A stretch of DNA of 64,000 bases from Eledone cirrhosa (taxonomy: Eukaryota), in the NCBI GenBank assembly GCA_964016885.1, contig OZ024763.1:14942001-15006000 (forward strand), in the 5' to 3' direction. The position numbers were made by a program, and so were the translations under genes. The stretch's first letter is position 1. The number at the start of each line of letters is the position of its first letter. This document shows, in pieces, positions 2,219-50,079 of this stretch. The notes under the pieces are model-generated. The model did no database searches. It was not told the DNA's origin and saw nothing but the letters and a program-made list of their open reading frames with translations.

Positions 2219-2288
2219 AATATACATATACATATATATATATAAAATATATTAATAAATGGAAACTATATTTATAAAACCATATTTA

Positions 2289-2350
2289 TTTTATTATGCA
2301 TATTTCAAGGGCAACCAAGGCAAATTATGGTGCGCTTTCATCAGATAAAA
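2289..2350 (-). ncRNA. Type I minimal hammerhead ribozyme motif
   Basis: Minus strand reads TTTTAT-CTGATGA-AAGCGCACC..GGTTGCCCTT-GAAA-TATGCATA-ATAAAA: perfect 6-bp stem I, intact core, stem II, palindromic short stem III, AUA cleavage triplet. Confidence 0.7.
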
Positions 2351-2608
2351 TCCAGATTTGTTTTATAAATAAATATTGACATACCCAGAAAAAAAAGACA
2401 ACCTTAACGGTTGGAGCTTCCTGGATAGTCATGTATATAGATATGTATATATATATATATAACTAGAAATTGATTAACATATAAATAAACATGAATAATC
2501 ACAGGAGATAATTTTTACAAGTGTGTAACCACACATAGCTAGGTAGGTAACTAAATAAAGTTGACCAGAACTTCAAAAATAAATACCTTATAATATGATT
2601 AATCTTCC

Positions 2609-2706: not shown

Positions 2707-3044
2707 TAAAACGTTAGAATATGTGTAATAAGGCCAAGACAATGCAGATATGGACATAGAAAAAAGAATCTAATAGTGAAAGATATTGATGTGAATTCGT
2801 CTTTCACCTTGAATTTATTTAAATGTCCTTAATTTTCGAGATAATATCTCTTCTTCGGAGGGAAGTAAAGGTCTCAGACCAGCGTCTTTAAATCTCTACC
2901 GAAGAAGAGATATTATCTCGAAAATTAAGGACATTTAAATAAATTCAAGGTGAAAGACGAATTCACATCAATATCTTTCACTATTACATTCTTTTTTCTA
3001 TGTCCATATCTGCATTGTCTTGGCCTTATTACACATATTCTAAC

Positions 3045-3050
<6 letters not shown>
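2707..3050. repeat. Near-perfect inverted repeat, 152-bp arms with 40-bp spacer
   Basis: 2707-2858 is the reverse complement of 2899-3050 with one mismatch seen. (TA)n lies nearby on both sides. Confidence 0.92.
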
Positions 3051-3691: not shown

Positions 3692-3885
3692 ATAGGAACG
3701 AGTAGGACCCCGACGGCTGAGCTCAAGCCGTTTCGACGGCTATTTCTGGACTAAGAATTAGCCGTCGAAACGGCTTGAGCTCAGCCGTCGGGGTCCTACT
3801 CATTCCTATTACCCACTCTACTACCCTAAGTATTGAGTACTTTGGTGCGTTATGGTCCACCTGGTTCCTTACCACATTTCCTTCG

Positions 3886-3888
<3 letters not shown>
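3692..3888. mobile_element. Dispersed short element with terminal foldback (probable Penelope-like remnant)
   Basis: Palindrome 3692-3809 (aggaacgagtaggaccccgacggctgagctcaagccgtttcgacggc.. and its inverse) plus a unique tail abutting (TA)n. Copies at 25243-25437, 37999-38208 and 41240-41430. Confidence 0.75.
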
Positions 3889-3926
<38 letters not shown>

Positions 3927-3931
<5 letters not shown>

Positions 3932-4942
3932 ATGGGAACTTCTCTATCTGCTGACGATCTGGCTCTTATGGCAGAATCAGTAGAGGAGCTAGAGAATAAA
4001 TTCTGGCTATGGAAACAGCAGTTGGAAGCAAGAGGACTGAGAGTGAACCTAGCTAAGACAAAAGTGTTGATGAGTAGAAAAGAGGACAAAACCCTGATTC
4101 CGTCAGGGAAATGGCCATGTTCGATATGCAGAAAAGGAGCTGGCATAAATTCTATAAAATGCACATAATGCAGATCCTGGGTACACAAGAGATGTAGCGG
4201 GATAACAATCAAACTAACAGGTAGGGAGAAATACGTATGCAATAGATGTACAGGGAAATTAGACAGTAGAAGTCGCATTGATAGACACATTTTTCAAATG
4301 CAGGCGGGTGCTATAGAAGTGGTGGATAGCTTCCGGTACCTAGGAGATCAGATTAGCATGGGAGGGAGGTGTTCCGAGGCCTTAGTATCTAGAATAAGGA
4401 CAGGTTGGAAGAAGTTTAGGGAGCTGCATTCTCTGCTGACGAAGAAGGGTTTCTCCCTGCGTACGAAAGGCCGGTTGTATGATGCCTGTGTGAGGAGCGC
4501 CATGTTGCATGGTAGTGATACATGGGCAGCAACTGCAGAGGATATGCGATGGCTGGAGAGAAATGAGGCAAGCATGCTCCGTTGGATGTGCAATGTCAAT
4601 GTGCGTGAACGACCCAGCATGGATGTGTTGAGAGAGAAACTGTGTCTGAGAGGGATAGAATGTAGTGTGTGAGAGAGGAGACTGAGGTGGTATGGACATG
4701 TGATGCGCATGGAAGATGACCGATGGGTGAAGAAGTGCCAGGAAATGCCAGTTGAAGGAAGACGTGGTAGAGGTAGACCACGAAAAAACATGGGCGGAGG
4801 TGGTGAGAACAGACCTCAGACCGCTGAAGCTCACGGTGGAGATGACGAGGGACCGTGACGAGTGGAGAGATGCTGTGCTGAATAAGACCTGTCCCACCCT
4901 TGCAAGCAGGGAAAAGCGGACGTAAAATGATGATGATGATGA
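3927..4942 (+). mobile_element. 5'-truncated, degenerate RTE-clade LINE
   Basis: RT C-terminus (ADDLAL, GLRVNLAKTKV, FRYLG, KGRLYDACVRSAMLHG, LRWYGHVMR, RGRGRPRK) with a Cys/His finger insert. In-frame stops at 4166 and 4670, (GAT)n tail, inserted in (TA)n. Confidence 0.92.
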
Positions 4943-7066: not shown

Positions 7067-7102
7067 TCTCAATGTTTCAGACGCTAGTCCTTCATCAGAA
7101 GA
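7067..7102 (-). ncRNA. Degenerate minimal hammerhead motif in a Penelope-like fragment
   Basis: Minus strand reads TCTT-CTGATGA-AGGACTAGCGTCT-GAAACATT-GAGA. Paralog on the plus strand at 25098-25133. Confidence 0.55.
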
Positions 7103-10683: not shown

Positions 10684-11264
10684 CCCTTTTATGTTCAAAC
10701 CGGCCAAAACAGGCCAGAATTCTCTACCTCTTTCTGTTGAAACTGGCTGTAACTGGTCGCTCAAACTGATGTTAAGGTATTGTTCTCAAAATAAATACTT
10801 TCAAAATCTCATAGATTTTATATTATGTGAGATAATTATGTGAGGTAAAGCCTTTACCATGAAAATACAATAGTATATATAGAGTAATGTAAATGTTATG
10901 TGAGATAATTATGTGAGGTAAAGCCTTTACCATGAAAATATAATAGTAAATATAGAGTAATGTGAATGTTATGTGAGATATTATGTGAGGTAAAGCCTTT
11001 ACCATGAAAATATAATAGTAAATATAGAGTAATGTGAATGTTATGTGAGATATTATGTGAGGGAAAGCCTTTACCATGAAAATATAATAGTATATATAGA
11101 GTAATGTAAATGTTATGTGAGATATTATGTGAGGTAAAGCCTTTACCATGAAAATATAATAGTATATATAGAGTAATGTGAATGTTATGTGAGATATTAT
11201 GTGAGGTAAAGCCTTTACCATGAAAATATAATAGTATATATAGAGTAATGTAAATGTTAAAGGG
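10684..11264. mobile_element. piggyBac-like MITE with internal 72-bp tandem array
   Basis: TTAA-ccctt...aaggg-TTAA ends. About six copies of a 72-bp unit at 10823-11258. Confidence 0.82.
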
Positions 11265-12413
11265 TTAAACTGATTTTTAGAACTAGATGAAGGGTTAGGA
11301 CCTTGTTCCACCTTTGCCATGGGTTAGCCTGGTATTGCAGTACTTCCAAGATTTAGCCCATCATATAGACTGCAGGGCACAGCTGAAACCCAACACTGAC
11401 TTAGGTGTAGAGTCTATCACCCTCTCTCCTTCCCACCTTCTTTCATTGCTTAACAATCTTCCTCATTTCTCTCATTTTCCTCTCTTTTGTTGTTTTAATT
11501 GCCGTTCTATATGATGATAATGATGATGAAGATGATGATGATAATCATCATCATCTTCCACGCCAGCATGGGTTAGACAGGTTTGTCCCATTTAGAGGCA
11601 AGTTGGGTCAGGTGACCGTGTCTCGCTCATATAGGACTGTTTCTGGATGGGTTTTCTACGGCTGGATGATAATGAAAATTATTGTGTACAGTGCTCAGGT
11701 GCACTACAACTCGTCAAAGGTGCATATATAGTACATATACTAATTGTTTCTACTTTAGGCACAAGACCAGCAATTACCCCAGTGCATTACTGGTACTTTA
11801 TTCTATCGACCCCGTAAGGATGAAAAGCAAAGTCAACCTCGGCGGGATTTGAACTCAGATCGTAAAGGGACGTAACTATGCTGCAAAGCATGGCGTCCGA
11901 CCCTCTACCGATACTGCCAATCCATAATAATGAAAATTATTGTGTACAGGGCTCAGGTGCACTCCAACTCATCAAAGGTGCATGTGTAGTACATAGAATA
12001 ATGTACAAATGTCAGGAAAGTGAACAGTGTATGAGTCATGATATACACACGGATACATGCGTGTGTGTATATGGAAGGGGAATATCAGGTGTAGTGTTGC
12101 CGAAATTCGGGAATCATGGAAGTTTTGAAGGATATCTAATGTCATCCATTTTACTGTCTCTCCAGGTTATTTCATTGTTAAATCTTTCACTTGATAGTGA
12201 ACAAAGCAAGCTTTTTGAAGATGTTCAAGCGTTCTTATTTAAATTAAAATCTTCCAACATAATTTTATATAAGAACGAAATGTTTCTATCTTAGTAAATA
12301 ATTCATAATTCAAGTAAATCCTTCAAAATTCTTCATTAATTAATTGAAAAAGAAAGTAATTTATAAGAGATATTAGAAATTGAGACACAAAATACTGTCT
12401 TGTTGCTCCACCT

Positions 12414-18170: not shown

Positions 18171-18256
18171 GTAGAACAAAACAGGGCATAATACGACAAG
18201 GTCCAACACAATATGACAGCGTAGGACAGGTGTTAAAGAAATCCAACAATACCTAC

Positions 18257-18973
18257 ATTGAACTCCGAGCCATGTAGCTGGGGTCCCAGTTTGTAGTGGG
18301 AACATACGAGAAGTTGGGGACAGTCGTTGATAAATTTGCCTCTCTTCTCCCCCTTAACATTCTCTCCATCATCATCAGTAACATCAGTAGCGGAAGGTGT
18401 GGTGGTAATCCAGCAGCGAAAGTTGTCACACACGAAATCCTTAACGGTATATTCCTGGGAAAGGGACACGTCACAGGAGGAGTAGGCAGATGAGGAGGAG
18501 AAGGAGGAGAGGGAGCTGGCCAGAGACGAAGAGGATTCCAGGGAACAGAACGGAGACTCCAGAGACTCCATGGACAAAACCCTGGTCTGCTGCGAGGAGG
18601 CAGTGGGAGTACAGGCGCTGTACTGGCTGTTGCTCAAGTCCTCGTCAATATAGGAAATCAGATCTTCGTCCTCGTTGTCAGATAGCAGTATGGTCTTCAC
18701 AGGCTGGTCGCTGTCATCCTTGTCTGGGTATTCACTGGGGACAGAAGTAGTAGTAGTGTCCCCTGCGTCTGGCTGTGGCTCCTGGTCAAAGGGCCCAGAC
18801 AGCAAAAGGTTCCCCTCAGGCATAATGACCACACAGGAGATGTAGTTATTCAACTGTTGACCGAAAAACAGGGGGTGTGGCCATTTCACAGGGGCCTCTG
18901 CTGGCCCTGTGTTTAGAGGCGTCGACTGCGATGGTGGTAGAATTGGGCGGGAGATACTTATAAGTTCCTCCAT
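18257..18973 (-). CDS. Candidate alternative first coding exon (239 aa acidic/Ser-rich N-terminus) inside the myosin-XVIII intron, or a nested gene of unknown function
   Basis: Only long complex-sequence non-TE ORF in the window (246 aa to the stop at 18233). Start context caacaATGG, GC-rich island, and a phase-0 donor AAT|gtaggt seven codons before the stop. No recognised domain. Confidence 0.6.
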
Positions 18974-19379
18974 TGTTGAATAAATAAATAAATGATGACT
19001 AAATAAATAAACAGGAAGAGAGGAGAGGGGTTGGACACAGAGTAGGGCAGTAGTGGGCAGGAGTCGGGGTCAGAGGAAGCTGGTTGCAGAGGGCACACCA
19101 GAATTATGTGCCTGTGCTTCTAAGGAAATGGATGGAAGACAATAATAATAATAATAATAATAGCAATTATTATTATACTGGGTCCTGTGAGAGAGAACGG
19201 AGTTGTCTGCACATCTGTAGAAGAAAGGGGTCATAGTTACTCGCCCTAAATTCTTGTGGCCCCAGACCAGACTGAAGGGAGGAAGAGAGAGACTGTGAGA
19301 AGAGTCCACCTCGGAAGACAGGGCAACTGTGCTCTAAACTAAAACTGGGTGAGTTACTAGAGTAGGTAGTAGCACAACT

Positions 19380-24135: not shown

Positions 24136-24650
24136 TATATATACACATATATATATATATATAAATACACCCCGTCCCACCACCCCCACCCGATCCACAC
24201 CACCCCGTTCTATGTAAAGTTATGTTGGTGCCGCGCCATCGAGGCCGAAACAAATGAGATCGTGTAGGTGTCACGACAAAAAAACACACAGTCCACGCTG
24301 TAATGTGGCCGTGTAGGCAACACGGTAAAAACCTCCCAGACCCACACTGTAAATGTGGTTGGTGTTAGGAAGGGCATCCAACTGTAGAAAACCTGCCAGA
24401 CAGTCCTATGCGAGCAAGACAATCACTCTTGCCTCAAGTGGGACTACCCCCGTCCAAACCCATGCAAGCGTGGAACACGGACGTTAAACGTTGATGATGA
24501 TGATGATGATGATATATATATACACATATAATAATATATAAGATCAAAAGATGGTTAAAAGAGTTCCATGTATTTTATTATGCGCATTTCAAAAACAAAT
24601 ATCATCATCATATAATATATATAAATAGAGAGAGAGAGGAGAGAGAGAGA

Positions 24651-24708
<58 letters not shown>

Positions 24709-25432
24709 GGGGGATTAAGATCCCATAGCTCCTCGTGGAGTCTTAGAGGCCCCATCAAACAGTGTGTCTAGGGCACATTTAAACCTGGTGGAGCCCAACC
24801 CTTTCCAGGTCTGAACACAGCCAATTTTTTCTATAGAGAAAGAATCGACCCCAGTACAGGACTGGTACTTTTTTTATTGACCTAGAAAGAATGAAAGGCA
24901 AGGTTGACCACGGTGGGATTTAAACTCAGAGCGTGCAATGAGGTGGGAAGAACCCTGTAAACCATTCTATCAAGATGTCTTAACTCTGCCATATATATAT
25001 ATACTTGTATCATGAATGGACCTGTTATTTTTATCTAAAGACATTTCTTCCAATTCCAACCCGCCCGTCCCCTCAATTTTTCTTATTTCTCATTCTTTCT
25101 CCTGATGAAGGACTAGCGTCCGAAATGTTAGGACCCTCTTCCTGCTATATCAAGCGTTAACCTAATATATCCCTTCCATATACTGTACCTATTGTGTTGT
25201 TATTTCTGCTTACCTTTTACATATATATATATATATATATATAACGAAGGAAATGTGGTAAGGAACCAGGTGGACCATAACGCACTAAAGTACTCAATAC
25301 TTAGGGTAGTAGAGTGGGTAATAGGAACCAGTAAGACCCCGACGGCTGAGCTCAAGCCGTTTCGACGGCTAATTCTGGACTAGAATTAGCCGTCGAAACG
25401 GCTTGAGCTCAGCCGTCGGGGTCTTACTGGTT

Positions 25433-25476
<44 letters not shown>

Positions 25477-27187: not shown

Positions 27188-27855
27188 CCATCACCCTTAT
27201 TACTATAACCTCACCACCACCACCGTTATCACCATAACCTCACCACCATCACCATCATCATCATCATATCATTATCACCAGTTTATTTCACATTGCTCCA
27301 GTTTGCTCAGCTGTAGAAATGAGATGATAGGGACTGGGGTCCCTATCATTCCACGGCAAAGTTGTCGTGGAGGTGCCACGGAAAAAAAAGCACCCAGCAC
27401 TCACTGTCAATGAGGTTGGTGTTAGGAAGGGCATCCAGCTGTAGAAATCAAGCCAGAATCAGTTCCCATCCCACCCTTGCAAGCAGGGAAAAAGCGGACG
27501 TAAAATGATGATGATGATGATATATATTATATATATATTTCCTAAGGTAAAATTGGTATTTCACACACACCTCTCGCTCATTTTGAAACTTTTTATTGCT
27601 CCTCTGAAGAGAGTGAACGTACACTTATGCCTACATGTCAATGCTTGTATAGGGATATGGATTGGGAGAAATGTTTCATAACATTTCAAATAATTGGATG
27701 TTCAATTCCCTTGAAATATGTGCAAGGAAATAAATATGGTTTTAAAAGATAAAAGATAATTTTTCCATCGATATATTTATTTATATATATATATATAAAC
27801 TAGAATAACGAAGGAAGATGGACCATAACGCACCATAAACTAGAGTATATATATA

Positions 27856-32019: not shown

Positions 32020-32621
32020 AATAATGGAGCTGCGGCGTTGCAAATGGGTTACATATGAAAAAGTTTGTCCTTCATCAGTGGCCTTCCAACCGTCGTAGGC
32101 ATTTCGTCGCTTTAAAGGCCATATACCTCAGGTTGGTGCGAGCAACGGCTAAAAAAAGTTGTGTTATATATTAATATATATAGAAACTACGTCATATGAC
32201 AGCTGCAGCTTGGTAAAGTCTGTCTTTCCCATTTGGTGGCTGTTGCAATCCAGTTATGCCAAGTGTGGGAAGATGGATGGCCTATATTTGATTTGTTGAA
32301 TTTGGGGAGTGAGTATGATTTGGTTTGGCAAGGGTCATAAGTGCAAGTTGGCATTCAGTTTAGAGCATTTGTGGACTGATTAGAACAATAACAGCTTTAT
32401 TTATGTATATATAAGTATGTGTGTTTGCACACACATTAATAAAGTGTAAATCCCAGAAATAATAAAACACTGTTATCACTTGGGTAAACATATATATGAA
32501 AACAAATTGAATCTAGCACTTTCGCTTTTCATTATATATATATATATGCAGAGGTTATATTTAATTTATTGGGATTCAAAAAGTTTAAACATTTTTTATA
32601 ACTGATATAAAGCACTCAACA

Positions 32622-36142: not shown

Positions 36143-36187
<45 letters not shown>

Positions 36188-36274
36188 GGAAAGTTATATT
36201 TAAATTGTTGGGTTAACAACGAGTAAATATTTATAACTGATATAAAAGCACTCAACAAGTATTTGGAGTATATT

Positions 36275-36641
36275 TATGATATTAAATAAATGGAAACTAT
36301 ATTTATAAAACCATATTTATTTCGTTATATATATTTCAGGGATATCATATTAACAATATGTTATGCCATCTTCAGACAAAATACAATATAAACAGTCTTA
36401 TAAATAAATAGATACGACATACCTTTCAATCACCTTGCATTTGGGAGGTTGATTGAAATCAAATCAACCTCCCAAATGCAAGGTGATTGAAAGGTATGTC
36501 GTATCTATTTATTTATAAGACTGTTTATATTGTATTTTGTCTGAAGATGGCATAACATATTGTTAATATGATATCCCTGAAATATATATAACGAAATAAA
36601 TATGGTTTTATAAATATAGTTTCCATTTATTTAATATCATA
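36275..36641. repeat. Perfect palindrome, 180-bp arms with 7-nt loop
   Basis: 36275-36454 is the reverse complement of 36462-36641; no mismatch seen. Confidence 0.93.
36535..36596 (+). ncRNA. Hammerhead motif (mirror copy on minus strand at 36320-36381)
   Basis: TTTTGT-CTGAAGA-TGGCATAACATATTGTTAATATGATATCCCT-GAAA-TATATATA-ACGAAA. Stem I is retained with G-C and U-G pairs; the stem II base is mismatched. Confidence 0.58.
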
Positions 36642-36869
36642 TATATATATATATATATATATATTGGTAAACAGAATAGAAAATGCTGACAAATTGTTCA
36701 CAGTTGAAAAATGGTTTAATTAGGAATAAAAGAGTATTAGTGATTGTATGGGTTAGTATTCAGTTGTGGTTTTAAGTTTTTAAGTTTTTACTGGTTGCGC
36801 ATTTCTAAATGCTTTTCAAAAATAATTTTGAGATAGAGTGTCCGTGCTGTTTATGGATATGTGTGTGTA

Positions 36870-37945: not shown

Positions 37946-38207
37946 GACAGATAGATAGATAGATAGATAGATACATACATAAATATATATATATATATAT
38001 AGGAACGAGTAGGACCCCGACGGCTGAGCTCAAGCCGTTTCGACGGCTAATTCTGGACTAAATTGATTTAGTCCAGAATTAGCCGTCGAAACGGCTTGAG
38101 CTCAGCTGTCGGGGTCCTACTCGTTCCTATTACCCACTCTACTACCCTAACTATTGAGTACTTTGGTGCGTTATGGTCCATCTGGTTCCTTACCACATTT
38201 CCTTCGT

Positions 38208-40064: not shown

Positions 40065-42365
40065 TTAATTGTATTTGTCCCAGTCGCAGTTTTGGTTCCA
40101 TGAACACAAACCAACCCTAGGAAAAATGAATAGAAAATACATCTTCCTCGATCTGTAGAGAAATGGAGAGATTGTCTTTTATAACACCAGTGTCAATGGC
40201 ACATATTCAGATTAGGAAGACCCAGCAAGACTTGGGACGAGGCGATAAAAGCTGACCTTGTGCAACTGAACCTCTCAAAGACAAATGACACAGGATTGAG
40301 ATCTTTGACGTTACACAGTAATACAGAAGACATGCCTTCTCATGCGCACCGACTAAAACATACACCTAGCAGGCGCCCCTTAATCGCTATGCCCCCCCAC
40401 TCACTCCTGTCCACACCACTCTTACACTGTGAACAAAATATATCCAGCACACAGTGTAAAGCTCCCAGCCCATACTGTAAAGTGGTCATGAAGGGTTCAC
40501 AACAAAAAGCATCTAGCCCACACTGTAAAGTGGTCCTGTAGGTGTAATGGTTAAAAACACCCAGCACACTCTGTAAATGTGGTTGGCATTAGAAAGGGCA
40601 TCCAGCTGTAGAAACCTAGCCAGTAAGGCACGGCAGCCTGACCTAACTTACCTCAAATCGGACGACATGTCTAACCAACCCATGCTAGCGTGGAAAATTG
40701 ACGATGATATATATATATATATCATGGCAAAAAGCACCCAGCCCACACTGTCAATGTGGTTGGCGTTAGGAAGGGCGTCCAACCAGAAACACCCCTATAT
40801 GAGTGAGACACGGTCACCTGACACAACTTGCCTAAAAATAGGACCCCTTTAACCCATGCAAGCATGGAAGATGGACATTAATCGATGATGATGATGATGA
40901 TATATATATATATCATCATTTCATTGTACGTCCGCTTTTTCCCTGCTTGATTTTGGCTTGATTTCTACAGCTGGATGCCCTTCCTAACACCAACCTCATT
41001 TACAGTGAGTGCTGGGTGCTTTTTTGCCGTGGCACCTCCACGACCACTTTGCAGTGGAATGATAGGGACCCCAGTCCCTATCATCTCATTTCTACAGCTG
41101 AGTAAACTGGAGCAATGTGAAATAAAGTGTCTTGCTCAAGGAAACAACACATCACCCGGTCTGAGAATTGAACTCACAACCTTTCGATTGCAAGGCCAAT
41201 GCTCTAACCACTAAGCCATGTGCCTCCATATATATATATAGCAAAGAAAGTGTGATAGGAAGCCAGAATGACCATAACGCACCAGAGTACTCAATACTTA
41301 GGGTAGTAGAGTGGGTAATAGGAAAAGAGTCAGGACCCCGACAGCTGAGCTCCAGCCGTTTCAACATCTGGGTTCAGATCTAGTTGCCGAAACAGATGGA
41401 GCTCTGCTGTCGGGGTCCTGACTATTTTCCTGTGTGCGTGTGTGTGTGTGTGTGAGTGTGAGTGTGAGTGTGAGTGTGTGTGTGAGTGTGTGTGTGAGTG
41501 TGAGTGTGAGTGTGTGTGTGAGAGTGTGTGTGTGAGTGTGAGTGTGTGTGTGAGTGTGAGTGTGAGTGTGTGTGTGTGAGTGTGAGAGTGTGTGTGAGAG
41601 TGTGTGTGAGAGTGTGTGTGTGAGTGTGAGAGTGTGTGTGAGAGTGTGTGTGTGAGTGTGAGTGTGTGTGTGTGTGTGTGAGTGTATGTGTGTGTGTGTG
41701 TGTGTGTGATGGGCTTCTGCAGTTTCTTTCTACACTAACTAACAATACCACAAGAGTGGGATGTTAGAATCGGCAGAGCAACAGACAACACGTGTTGCTG
41801 ATATCAGGTTATATTCCTCACCTTTAAAGTTTGAGTTCAAATCACACTGACGGAGAGTTGAGCTGCCATTTTTATTTTTATTTATTCATTCATTTATTTA
41901 TATTTTCTATCCCGACCGTCTTTCTGGAATCGATTAAACCCACAAGAAACCTACCGAGGTGAAATAGTTGAGAGGGAGTGGGGAGTTACTTTAATTATCT
42001 CTCTTCCTTCCCAACACTCACCCCATCCCCCACAAAATATGTGGCCCTGTGCCAAATGTAGAAAACATCCTCACCATTATTAATGATGATGATGATGATG
42101 GTTATAGTGATGATGATGATGATGATGGTGATGATGACTTATTATTATTATACTTTCTATCTCTCTCACTTTCTCTCATATAATGTGTGTGTATATATAT
42201 ATATGTGTGTGTGTGTATGTGTGTGTGTATGCGTGTGTGAGTGTGTGTATATATATATATATGTATGTATGTGTGTGTGTATGTATATATGTATATATGT
42301 ATGCATGTGTGTGAGTGTATATATGTATATATATATATATATATATGTATGCATGTGTGTGAGTG

Positions 42366-45784: not shown

Positions 45785-47029
45785 TACATATATATTTATA
45801 TATATATCATCATCATTTATTTATATTTATATATATCAGCATCATCATCGTTTAACATCCATCTTCCACGCTAACATTGGTTAAACGGTTTTGTTCCATT
45901 TGATGCAGGAATGGTCAGGAGACTGTGTCTCACTTGTATGGAAGTGTCTCTGGCAGGTTTTCTGCGGTTGGATGCTCTTCCTAACACCAACCACTTTATA
46001 TATATATATGTATATGTAAAAGACAGCAAAAAGCACCCAGCCCACACTGTAAAGCAGACGTGTAAAAGACATGGCAAAAAGCACCCAGCCCACACTATCA
46101 ATGTGGTTTGCGTTATGAAGGGCATCCAGCCATAGAAACACCCCTATATAAGCGAGACATGGTCACTCGACACAACTTGCCTCAAAATAGGACCCGTCTA
46201 ACCCATGCTAGCGTGGAAGATGGACGTTAATCAATGATGATTCATATATACATATATATGTGTGTGTGCGTGTGTGTTTTTGAGGTGAGATGGTGAGATG
46301 GATCTAGGATATCAAGACAAGAAATATGTGATGACATAATCTATTAGTCAATATATTGATTTACCATAATCAATCATTGCTCTGAAATGATCATAAAACA
46401 ATGAACTAATTAACAACCTATCATTGACGATTTTAGTTTTATTTAATTGTTTAATACACACACACACACACACACACCCATGCTAGCGTGGAAGATGGAC
46501 GTTAAACAAAGATGATGATGATGATATATATATATATATATATGTGTAAATAAATCTACCAAAATATACGGTAGTGTCCAATCCGTATGAAGAACTCAAT
46601 GTAATCCAAATATCATAAAAAGAGAAGTAGCATTCAAAATTTTTCGATGAAAATCACAGGAAAACAGAGTCAAGATAAATTAATAAAAACAATGAATAAA
46701 AATAAAGAACAAGTTCCTGATATTAAAAAATTCATCATTTAAATGATGAATTTTTTAATATAAGGAACTTATTCTTTGTCTTTATTCATTGCTTTTATTA
46801 ATTTATATATATATAAAATGTGTGTATGTATGTCTGTATATATATAATTTACTCAACCGATGCAAAGCAATAAAGCCACTAAAATGCCAGGGGTTTAAAT
46901 ATATATATGTATAATTTACTCAACTCAAGCAAGGCAATAAAGCCACTAAAATAGAAGGGGTTACTGTGAAGGGAGAAGGACAAGACGGAGAAAACATTAT
47001 TTAAGGAGAGACAAGATCATGATTGATGT

Positions 47030-47278: not shown

Positions 47279-47344
47279 CTGACTTAATCCAATCCGGTAG
47301 TTCAGTTTATCAATATCCATGTGGTCCAGTAGCTGTTTGATGAT
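47279..47344 (-). CDS. MYO18A: Myosin-XVIII converter exon
   Basis: Acceptor is a pyrimidine run ending ctacag, donor gtaggg, 66 nt (phase 0 to 0). IIKQLLDHMDIDKLNYRIGLSQ; this motif is normally followed by VFFR.G in myosins. Confidence 0.92.
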
Positions 47345-48042: not shown

Positions 48043-48589
48043 CTGGAAAAGAAGGCGATTGATAGAGTAGTGGTGGCGGCGGTGTAGTGATGGTGGGGGG
48101 TAAGTATGGTATAGTGGTAGCGATATATATATATAAATAGGAACAAATAATCAGTATTGCATCATATACATATTTATTACATATGTTTCACTGCCGATCA
48201 GCTCAAGGAATGATCGAATAATGTTCGTTCCTGACTCTGGAATCAGAAGCTCCTCAGATGTGTGTCCTCACATACAGCCGCACATCCAAATGTTATGTAT
48301 AATATAAGCAAGTGTAGCACCAATAAAAATATAGACTTCAGTGAGAAGAGTTAGAAACAAATTTATTGGCTTTAACATATGTTTCTGTGTCTATTATAAT
48401 AGTCAACATATGCTGACTACAATATATATTGTTCAATCATATGCAATACTAAATTATTTTTCACACGTCTTCAGAATGTATAAAAATGTTTGTGGTAATG
48501 TCCTGTCGACATGGCGTAGGGTTCAGGAATCATATATATATATTAAAATACAAATATTAATAAAATAGATGTTCTTTTGATCAATTAAA

Positions 48590-48640
48590 TTTTATTATAC
48601 ATATTTCAGAGGTACAACAGTACGTCCTCATCAGACAAAA
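48590..48640 (-). ncRNA. Type I minimal hammerhead ribozyme motif (sense to the myosin pre-mRNA)
   Basis: Minus strand reads TTTTGT-CTGATGA-GGACGTAC-TGTT-GTACCTCT-GAAA-TATGTATA-ATAAAA. Confidence 0.7.
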
Positions 48641-48734
48641 TATAATGATACATGATATGTTAAATGGTTAAGATTTAATCAAGGTAGTAAATCTTAACCA
48701 TTTAACATCTCAGAGTATGTCACGTATAATTATA

Positions 48735-48785
48735 TTTTGTCTGATGAGGACGTACTGTTGTACCTCTGAAATATATATAATAAAA
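48735..48785 (+). ncRNA. Type I minimal hammerhead ribozyme motif
   Basis: TTTTGT-CTGATGA-GGACGTAC-TGTT-GTACCTCT-GAAA-TATATATA-ATAAAA. Confidence 0.7.
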
Positions 48786-48947
48786 TTTAATTGATCAAAA
48801 GAACATCTATTTTATTAATATTTGTATATTAATAAAAATAAAAAATTTTTTTAATATTTTTTTTGTAGAGTGCTTCCAATCTGCTGTAAAACTTATTCTT
48901 TGATGCACTCATTGAATCTTGTTTAACTCTTTAATTATATATATATA

Positions 48948-48991
<44 letters not shown>

Positions 48992-49151
48992 TATATATGC
49001 AATTGGAAGACTGCAAAACTGCAAGCTAGATGCAAACTCCAAGCCTGTCAGTGGCCCGACTTGAGAACTGACTCAGGCTGTGAAGACCCGTCCAACCCTT
49101 GCTAGCAGGGAAAGCTGATGTTAAATGATGATGATGATGATATATATATAT

Positions 49152-49190
<39 letters not shown>

Positions 49191-49423
49191 ATACTCCAAT
49201 GATTCTGATGAGATAGATCTGTTTTCACCTTGAAACCACAGGTAATGCAGTGTTAACCCAAACACTCTCAACTTGCACTACCCTATTCTATCTTGGTTTG
49301 TTTGTTGTCCACTTTATAGGGTCTATTGGGTGTCTTACATCATGATACCATTACTAGCAAGATTGTCAAGTCCTTAACAGGGCCAAAGGGTCTTCTTATA
49401 CTCTGCACTGTCTTGGTTTGTTT

Positions 49424-49627
49424 GTCCTCCAGTTTACAGGTGCTACTGAATGTCCTCCAGTTAACAGATGCTACTGAATGTCCTCCAGTTAACAGATGCT
49501 ACTGAATGTCCTCCAGTTTACAGATGCTACTGAATGTCCTCCAGTTTACAGGTGCTACTGAATGTCCTCCAGTTTACAGATGCTACTGAATGTCCTCCAG
49601 TTTACAGGTGCTACTGAATGTCCTCCA
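49424..49627. repeat. 28-bp minisatellite, about 7 copies
   Basis: Unit ctactgaatgtcctccagtttacagatg. Confidence 0.9.
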
Positions 49628-50079
49628 TCATGACATCAACCCTAGGCAGGTTACCCATCCACTGCTGGCTATTGGCATCTCTCCAATCCATGTAGTCTCG
49701 GTTTTCCAAACATATCTTAAATTTCCAGCAATAATAATAATTGTTTCTACTTTAGGCACAAGGCCAGCAATTTTGGGAGAGGGGGAAAGTCGATTAAATC
49801 AACCCCAGTATGCTACTGGTACTTTATTTTATCGACCCTGTAAGGATGGTGAAAGACAAAGCTAACCTCGGCGGAATCTGAACTTAGAACATAAAGGGAT
49901 GTAACTCTATGCTGCAAACAACGCATGTTGTCCGACACTCTACCGATACTGCCAATCCACTATTTTTCATAAGAATAACAATAATGCTAATAATAATAAT
50001 AATAATAATAACAATAATGCTAATAATAATAATAATAATAATAACAATAATAACAACAATAATAATTTTCAACACTTAC

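Follow-up and report, generated by a model that had tools for sequence, protein, structure and literature searches.

A head-to-head, hammerhead-bearing insert in a myosin intron of Eledone cirrhosa, probably debris of a Penelope-like retroelement

Penelope-like elements, their hammerheads and the host intron

Penelope-like elements (PLEs) insert as 5′-truncated copies, often together with an inverted truncated copy and with a tail at one end, (TA)n being the preferred target of some clades (Craig et al. 2021, PMC8557442, in excerpt). Head-to-head is the commonest inverted arrangement of PLE copies (Arkhipova et al. 2013, PMC3846280, in excerpt), and short 3′ stubs that lack ORFs are the norm according to the portion of Cervera and De la Pena (2014, PMC4209133) drawn on here, in which dual minimal hammerheads on opposite strands, 100-700 bp apart, and the retention of spliceosomal introns by PLEs are also documented. 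For the Anolis Poseidon element PAc, the tail has been described as the sequence that separates two start sites of reverse transcription (Frangieh et al. 2024, PMC11167929, in excerpt).

The insert described here comprises 395 bp of arms plus tail within a 64,000-nt window, the whole stretch of the E. cirrhosa genome (contig OZ024763.1) that was analysed. With the insertion unit of EN+ PLEs, as the excerpts of Craig et al. and Arkhipova et al. present it, it shares the truncation, the head-to-head inverted copy, the extension at one end, the (TA)n and a hammerhead near the 3′ end; it differs in consisting of the terminal stub alone and in the length of the tail, which is 83-101 nt here rather than the usual 30-40 bp. 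The metazoan PLE hammerheads in the same portion of PMC4209133 have the same type I topology, a long helix II, a short helix III with a palindromic loop, and pairs on opposite strands; there, the motif of D. willistoni likewise has AUA as its site, and the Marsupenaeus and Saccoglossus(2) motifs are likewise without an extra base after CUGANGA. In contrast to those motifs, stem I is A/U-rich and 7 bp long here, the fourth stem II pair is a pyrimidine.C mismatch in all four lineages compared, and a GGTATGTC box is located upstream. PAc, within the excerpted text, resembles the insert in its AT-rich targets, in a tail defined by two 3′ ends and in a hammerhead unable to cleave alone (predicted in our case), but the PAc tail lies in the start of an ORF whereas, by inspection, no convincing reading frame runs through the tail of the insert. 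Non-LTR retrozymes (Li et al. 2026, bioRxiv 10.64898/2026.07.22.740005, in excerpt) likewise have a type I hammerhead, set in a short repeat that is non-coding and related to PLE pLTRs; they are, however, head-to-tail tandems with neighbouring ribozymes on one strand, whereas the insert is a head-to-head pair. The arrangement has been in print since 2013-2014, and the locus is common retroelement debris. The one supplementary file of PMC4209133 that was searched has no octopus entry, and motif searches of the supplements gave no match. Among the papers listed by a search for hammerhead ribozymes together with octopus, none concerns such a family by its title or abstract; subscription journals lie mostly outside the reach of that search, so the family may already be described.

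The location in a myosin intron, recognized in the earlier note, is borne out by a GT-AG intron on the minus strand (Table 1). The upstream exon matches the Pfam Myosin_head model with an E-value of 0.0086 and another exon does so with 3.3e-5, both below the curated cut-off, and Myosin_head clusters score 0.96 in the atlas for the gene, which we take to encode a class XVIII myosin. Three heuristic scans of the minus strand across positions 1-47279 of the window found no myosin exon downstream of 47279. The 47 kb that follow the exon at 47279-47344 are without a further myosin exon, whereas the upstream exons sit closer together; this exon-free region may be a very long intron, contain missed exons or include an assembly join. 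Elsewhere in the window, a U2 snRNA-like match on the plus strand (11236-11366; 50.2 bits against a gathering score of 46, and shorter than the model) is probably a pseudogene or a U2-derived repeat, and the minus strand has a 278-aa Ser/Asp-rich open frame at 18233-19069, with GC near 45% and no Pfam match on its 171-aa part.

Table 1. Features of the insert (copy A), its host intron and its relatives in the window
Feature	Positions	Strand	Description
Host myosin intron	48043..50079	-	2,037 nt, GT-AG, phase 1; contains the insert
Left arm	48541..48687	-	~147 nt; copy of the 3′ end of the element, truncated 5′; in sense orientation relative to the myosin transcript; stops at the family's short 3′ end, followed by (TA)n
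Right arm	48688..48834	+	~147 nt; second 5′-truncated copy, head to head with the left arm; antisense to the host transcript
One-sided extension (tail)	48835..48935	+	101 nt; homologous to the B foldback tail and to D (tail-only insert); ends in (TA)n
Type I hammerhead, right arm	48734..48786	+	predicted cleavage 3′ of A48779
Type I hammerhead, left arm (mirror image)	48589..48641	-	stem I 7 bp; CUGAUGA 48634-28; stem II; GAAA 48607-04; stem III loop AUGU; AUA 48598-96
Box resembling a 5′ splice site, family GGTATGTC	48714..48721	+	carries one change private to this copy; distance to the downstream core 19 nt
Relative B	36186..36647	.	foldback 36269-36647, arms 99.5% identical; cores 36541 (+) and 36375 (-); (TA)n on both flanks
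Relative C	2284..2355	-	solo hammerhead copy (at 2344) without mirror arm
Relative E	27590..27745	+	decayed solo copy; 102-nt stem/loop II; U16.1 changed
Relative G	24568..24622	-	decayed; motif degenerate or missing in its 5′ half; perfect stem III palindrome with a different loop, GCGC
Relative D	32554..32621	-	tail-only insert between two (TA)n runs

Arms, tail and family of the insert

Paired arms with hammerhead motifs are present in the myosin intron, confirming the earlier observation. The foldback reported at 48541-48834 is real: alignment identifies an inverted repeat with few differences (arms 48535-48677 and 48688-48840), and minus-strand RNA of the foldback is predicted to form a single extended hairpin (−183 kcal/mol, z = −28.6) whose stability none of 100 shuffles reaches. 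Its extent was correctly given for the two arms, but both the 101-nt tail, through which the insert runs on to 48935, and the flanking (TA)n had been overlooked. The (TA)n borders the insert on both sides, and a TSD is not readable inside it. Within 48541-48834, the arms differ by 5 substitutions and one 10-nt deletion that is private to the left arm; no indel is listed at a frequency of at least 5% of the family reads. The left arm reaches 10 nt further upstream in the element than the right arm, their start points being 53-63 nt upstream of the hammerhead core, and those of foldback B further. Part of the tail (48835-48863) has diverged into A/T runs. A match of the insert to Rfam MIR5380 was rejected as it is far below the gathering score and reflects the long hairpin alone.

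Reads and contigs from four of 23 public sequencing runs, none of them listed as RNA, were matched to the right arm plus tail at 80% likeness, yielding 1097 contigs of run X1 and 1861 raw reads of run X21, both from organism A, and 10 contigs of run X4 from organism B; run X7, presumably of RNA, covers the A/T-run stretch alone and is uninformative on expression. The family is high-copy and plainly abundant, although read depth, which declines gradually with no pile-up of 5′ ends listed at the hammerhead edge, is not a copy number. Upstream of 48688, the sequence goes on into a common continuation in 414 X21 reads and 20 X1 contigs, and goes on also in one organism B contig, the loose ends being visible for 30 letters. 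In the 414 reads, this continuation ends with the reverse complement of 48678-48687, and this apparent 10-nt spacer therefore belongs to the left arm. As the family extends upstream of both arms, these are 5′-truncated pieces and not terminal inverted repeats, that is, copies of a longer sequence that were cut 10 nt apart and joined head to head. At the other end, (TA)n takes over in 167 reads behind 48834, the mirror position of the left-arm end, and the tail is also deeply covered; two 3′ ends are therefore present in the family. Joints at which the strand switches are seen at three further positions among the reads or contigs of the family, each in few reads and at 80% likeness. A pile-up of read ends at 48789/48792 was considered as a trace of ribozyme cleavage and rejected, since the library is RAD-seq DNA and the AATT site there is presumably a restriction site.

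Five relatives of the insert are present in the window, a second tailed foldback (B), solo copies C, E and G, and a tail-only insert (D). The tail of B, 83 nt at 36186-36268, is on one side only. A score as high as that of the A and B tails was reached by 11 of 2000 shuffles, and D is 81% identical to the B tail (E 3e-11); with a tail that is homologous in A, B and D, the tail is part of the element, on one end only. In both A and B, an inverted 5′-truncated copy is joined head to head with the ribozymes facing outward, the junctions differ between copies and the ends are asymmetric. A single window thus contains a nested truncation series, from foldbacks A and B through solo copies C, E and G to tail-only D, and 5′ truncation is seen both in this series and in the 414 reads that continue beyond the arm start. 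A covariance model found G, which was outside the training set, with a rough E-value of 0.0035 but did not recover E.

Long inverted arms with almost zero spacer, AT-richness and TA flanks are also what would be expected of a MITE or Foldback-type DNA transposon with long terminal inverted repeats that happen to hold a hammerhead. This reading is largely refuted, and very improbable, given the one-sided tail, the derivation of both arms from a longer sequence, the variable junctions and the existence of solo and tail-only copies; there is no symmetric unit of fixed length. Perfect foldbacks can arise in library preparation, and the near-identity of the B arms could be read in that way, but an assembly or amplification artefact (a fold-back chimera), like a chance motif in AT-rich DNA, is scarcely credible. 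The arms of A have the differences noted above and differ in their flanks, and one X1 contig, at low depth and from a run that may share its source with the window, contains a 10-nt gap. In 91-100% of the family reads, the letters at 48723, 48728, 48775 and 48828 are those of the left arm, from which the right arm departs; four of the five substitutions are off the majority in the right arm alone, as expected if each arm has aged by itself after insertion, and this speaks against an artefact. A further departure of the right arm from the majority is at 48714 (A>G in 645 of 690 reads), a site that is deleted in the left arm.

Several other foldbacks were observed in the window. A second, GC-richer family has the same architecture, with short, near-perfect foldbacks at 3692-3809, 25321-25437 and 37999-38130 that differ in their junctions and have (TA)n on one side and a common ~80-nt tail on the other; the tail is also found at 41257-41317. 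GAAAC is present in this family and CUGANGA is not, as though it were truncated within a hammerhead. In the foldback at 2707-3050 (93% identical arms), both arms have a hammerhead-like core, CCGAAGA in place of CUGANGA with a 5-6 bp stem II and GAAA, which is a variant or a decayed minimal motif. A solo minimal hammerhead of another family is present at position 7098 on the minus strand (CUGAUGA, an extra A, a 4-bp stem II and GAAA, with an apparent CpG-type change after GAAA). An imperfect foldback at 1957-2218 (77%), in which no hammerhead core is seen, adjoins copy C, and a fragment with weak similarity to it lies at 48179-48258, within the same myosin intron as the insert. There is also a 132-nt AT-rich palindrome at 46675-46806 with zero spacer and (TA)n on one side.

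The hammerhead motif and its variation

The CUGANGA, GAAA and NUH core and three stems are present in both arms, as expected from the full type I motif per arm of the earlier note, with the correction that stem I is 7 bp long, including one G-U, rather than 6. In the right arm, stem I (48734-40 / 48780-86) encloses CUGAUGA at 48741-47, stem II at 48748-67, GAAA at 48768-71, and a 2-bp stem III with the loop AUAU, which precedes the AUA site at 48777-79. The AUA site, the 2-bp stem III and the near-palindromic loop were all located in each arm, and both motifs read from the foldback centre outward. Stem II, previously described as 8 bp with one mismatch, has 7 pairs plus a C.C at the fourth position, but its core-proximal pair is G-U and not the canonical G-C. 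The G10.1-C11.1 pair is therefore absent from both arms of the insert, whereas G-C is found in 449 of 761 family reads. As A-U occurs at this position in published PLE motifs, the G-U weakens this copy and not the family.

A descriptor for type I hammerheads with a stem I of at least 6 bp, the search for which the earlier note had called, matches three sites in the window, against zero in each of 100 locally dinucleotide-shuffled versions, which also argues against a chance motif. No Rfam hammerhead family matched the arm or copy C even at E ≤ 10, and a scan of the whole window with Rfam has no hammerhead among the 150 of 357 matches listed. In four of the six motifs (both arms of A, B and G), which have three different loops between them, all 8 stem III positions are self-complementary; in the other two (C and E), 6 of 8 are. 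This sequence property would be as the dimer model requires.

Copies A, B and C were aligned as 4 distinct rows from 3 independent lineages, with the structure drawn from the same sequences. In this alignment, 98.3% of the cells pair, as compared with 38-58% in slid registers, and 4 of the 6 stem II pairs change on both sides; the covariation score is reached by 2 of 500 shuffles. Stems I and II covary, with both stem III pairs invariant. When E is added, 39 of 40 stem cells pair across four diverged copies, a result matched by 8 of 100,000 shuffles, although this figure ignores relatedness and is indicative. Four read variants are listed within the motif, and all preserve or improve the fold. 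They are the G-C at the core-proximal stem II pair noted above, a change of the stem I G-U to A-U (276 of 829 reads), the replacement of the stem II mismatch by another mismatch (427 of 757) and a change in loop III; length variants begin at loop II. Compensatory stem changes of this kind point to a hammerhead fold that was under selection in the parent elements, the figures being indicative. Preferential conservation of the core, on which the earlier note had staked its reading, is not significant in the reads, with 0 of 14 core positions and 19 of 133 others varying among the 40 of 55 variant places that are listed (Fisher p 0.22).

The GGTATGTC box is exact in B, in C and in the read majority of the family of A, and has one mismatch in E. 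It precedes the core by 19-41 nt and persists in four diverged lineages that do not retain the surrounding sequence. Near-matches are expected 0.02 times per 60 nt, and the window has 3 exact matches, as the two arms of B together with C account for. Both arms of B retain the box and the left, host-sense arm of A has lost it through the 10-nt deletion. With PLE introns documented, the ribozyme might conceivably reside inside the element's own intron, with GGTATGTC as the 5′ splice site, and so define a distinct Penelope-hammerhead subtype. If so, splicing would strip the ribozyme from the mRNA while the unspliced template would keep it, the pyrimidine.C mismatch conserved in stem II would make a tertiary contact or one with a protein, and the host-sense arm could have lost the donor box because a cryptic splice site in the myosin intron was selected against. 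The box could, however, be a promoter or a binding site, and a single 10-nt deletion that hits it is not rare by chance. No conserved 3′ acceptor for this donor was found in the family, and the intron idea for that reason stays distinctly doubtful. A T-tract plus AG at 48855-48868 was rejected as the 3′ splice site of the element, as 304 of 417 reads have T at 48867.

The ribozyme in the myosin transcript and the origin of the insert

As stated in the earlier note, only one motif is in sense on either transcript, that of the left arm in the myosin pre-mRNA, where the ribozyme is predicted to lack activity. The head-to-head arrangement means that the complement of the sense motif is transcribed first, and as the mirror motifs never share a strand, there can be no dimerization in cis. 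When the foldback was folded as growing prefixes, the probability of stem II was ~1e-24, and the duplex is favoured by about 180 kcal/mol. For an arm without its complement, the predicted equilibrium probabilities are 0.46 for stem II, 0.002 for stem I and 0.0001 for stem III, and the full hammerhead fold has −1.1 kcal/mol as compared with −6.8/−7.3 for alternative folds; these equilibrium predictions leave out tertiary contacts and proteins. Sequestration of the ribozyme by the other arm, as proposed in the earlier note, is thus physically predicted, but it is probably not the reason that the copy is tolerated, since a lone arm would hardly form stems I and III and has no dimer in cis. The ~135 bp duplex would itself be a likely substrate for A-to-I editing or small-RNA production.

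A stronger role for sequestration can be envisaged, in which the origin is Penelope-like but survival has been shaped by selection: the sense motif would cut the myosin pre-mRNA, and intronic foldbacks persist as the mirror arm sequesters it. The large advantage of the duplex and the prior transcription of the complement, which holds in either direction, are in keeping with this. An engineered fast hammerhead in an intron lowers expression up to 20-fold (PMC11856399), and tandem retrozymes are somewhat depleted from Xenopus introns, although ~43% are still intronic (Li et al., in excerpt). We regard such selection as quite unlikely. A lone arm is predicted not to form stems I and III, the hammerhead fold scores worse than the alternatives given above, and there is no partner for a dimer in cis. 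A single minimal Schistosoma hammerhead gave no detectable cleavage and multimers cleaved weakly (PMC4209133, in excerpt), and the Anolis hammerhead depends on the protein of the element (PMC11167929, in excerpt). Inverted copies are, moreover, a normal by-product of insertion, and solo copies that are unpaired occur in the same window, whether inside the gene or outside it.

Our preferred explanation, which we consider very probable, is that the 395-bp insert is a dead insertion product of a hammerhead-bearing Penelope-like retroelement, with a ribozyme that, at this site, is predicted not to work. Both suggestions of the earlier note, a Penelope-like origin and a minimal hammerhead of the dimer type, draw support from the truncated arms joined head to head, the tail on one side, the (TA)n at the flanks, the covariation of the stems and the self-complementarity of stem III; the assignment would stand above the level of clade (Penelope/Poseidon, Neptune, Nematis, Hydra). 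The parent was likely a PLE with its hammerhead near the 3′ end of the terminal repeat. By the published Penelope mechanism, the RT/GIY-YIG protein of the element would nick AT-rich DNA, reverse transcription from two nearby RNA start points would generate the short and the tailed 3′ ends, and an early stop of reverse transcription would leave the inverted junction. Two 5′-truncated copies of the 3′ terminal repeat would so come to lie head to head between (TA)n runs, one with the 101-nt tail. In the parent RNA, the motif would presumably be active as a dimer, held together by the self-complementary stem III, or in concert with the protein of the element. In myosin pre-mRNA, the left-arm motif is predicted to zip into the duplex with the complement made before it and, even if unpaired, would not close the three-way junction.

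The parent could alternatively have been a short, non-autonomous hammerhead retroelement, retrozyme- or SINE-like, with no ORF of its own and mobilized by Penelope proteins, the foldback being its truncated inverted insertion. This departs from the preferred explanation in the nature of the parent alone and, although rather unlikely, is consistent with the very high copy number, with the lack of a coding remnant beside any copy in the stretches scanned, and with the proposed derivation of animal retrozymes from PLE pLTRs. There is, however, no head-to-tail tandem of the unit in the window, and stubs without ORFs are normal for PLEs. Among 145 stop-free stretches, most of them near the elements and drawn from the 631 candidates in the window plus shorter ones, there is no match to GIY-YIG and only one weak RVT_1 match, ~44 kb away. 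There is no direct copy in the window that would constitute a pLTR tandem, all of the copies being too short to show one, and pattern scans of viral, metagenome and prokaryote collections for relatives gave 0 matches. A broken reverse-transcriptase remnant, unrelated to the foldback, is located at 3830-4672 on the plus strand (RVT_1 E 3e-4, PHD E 0.003, both below the cut-off) and is presumably of the RTE-type LINE class.

Under the preferred explanation of a dead Penelope-like insertion product, interest shifts from this one copy to its family. As the family is very abundant and diverse in the genome, it supplies natural covariation data for a Penelope-hammerhead variant that is missed by Rfam, and it lets the role of these ribozymes be tested, including whether they ever cut host pre-mRNA.
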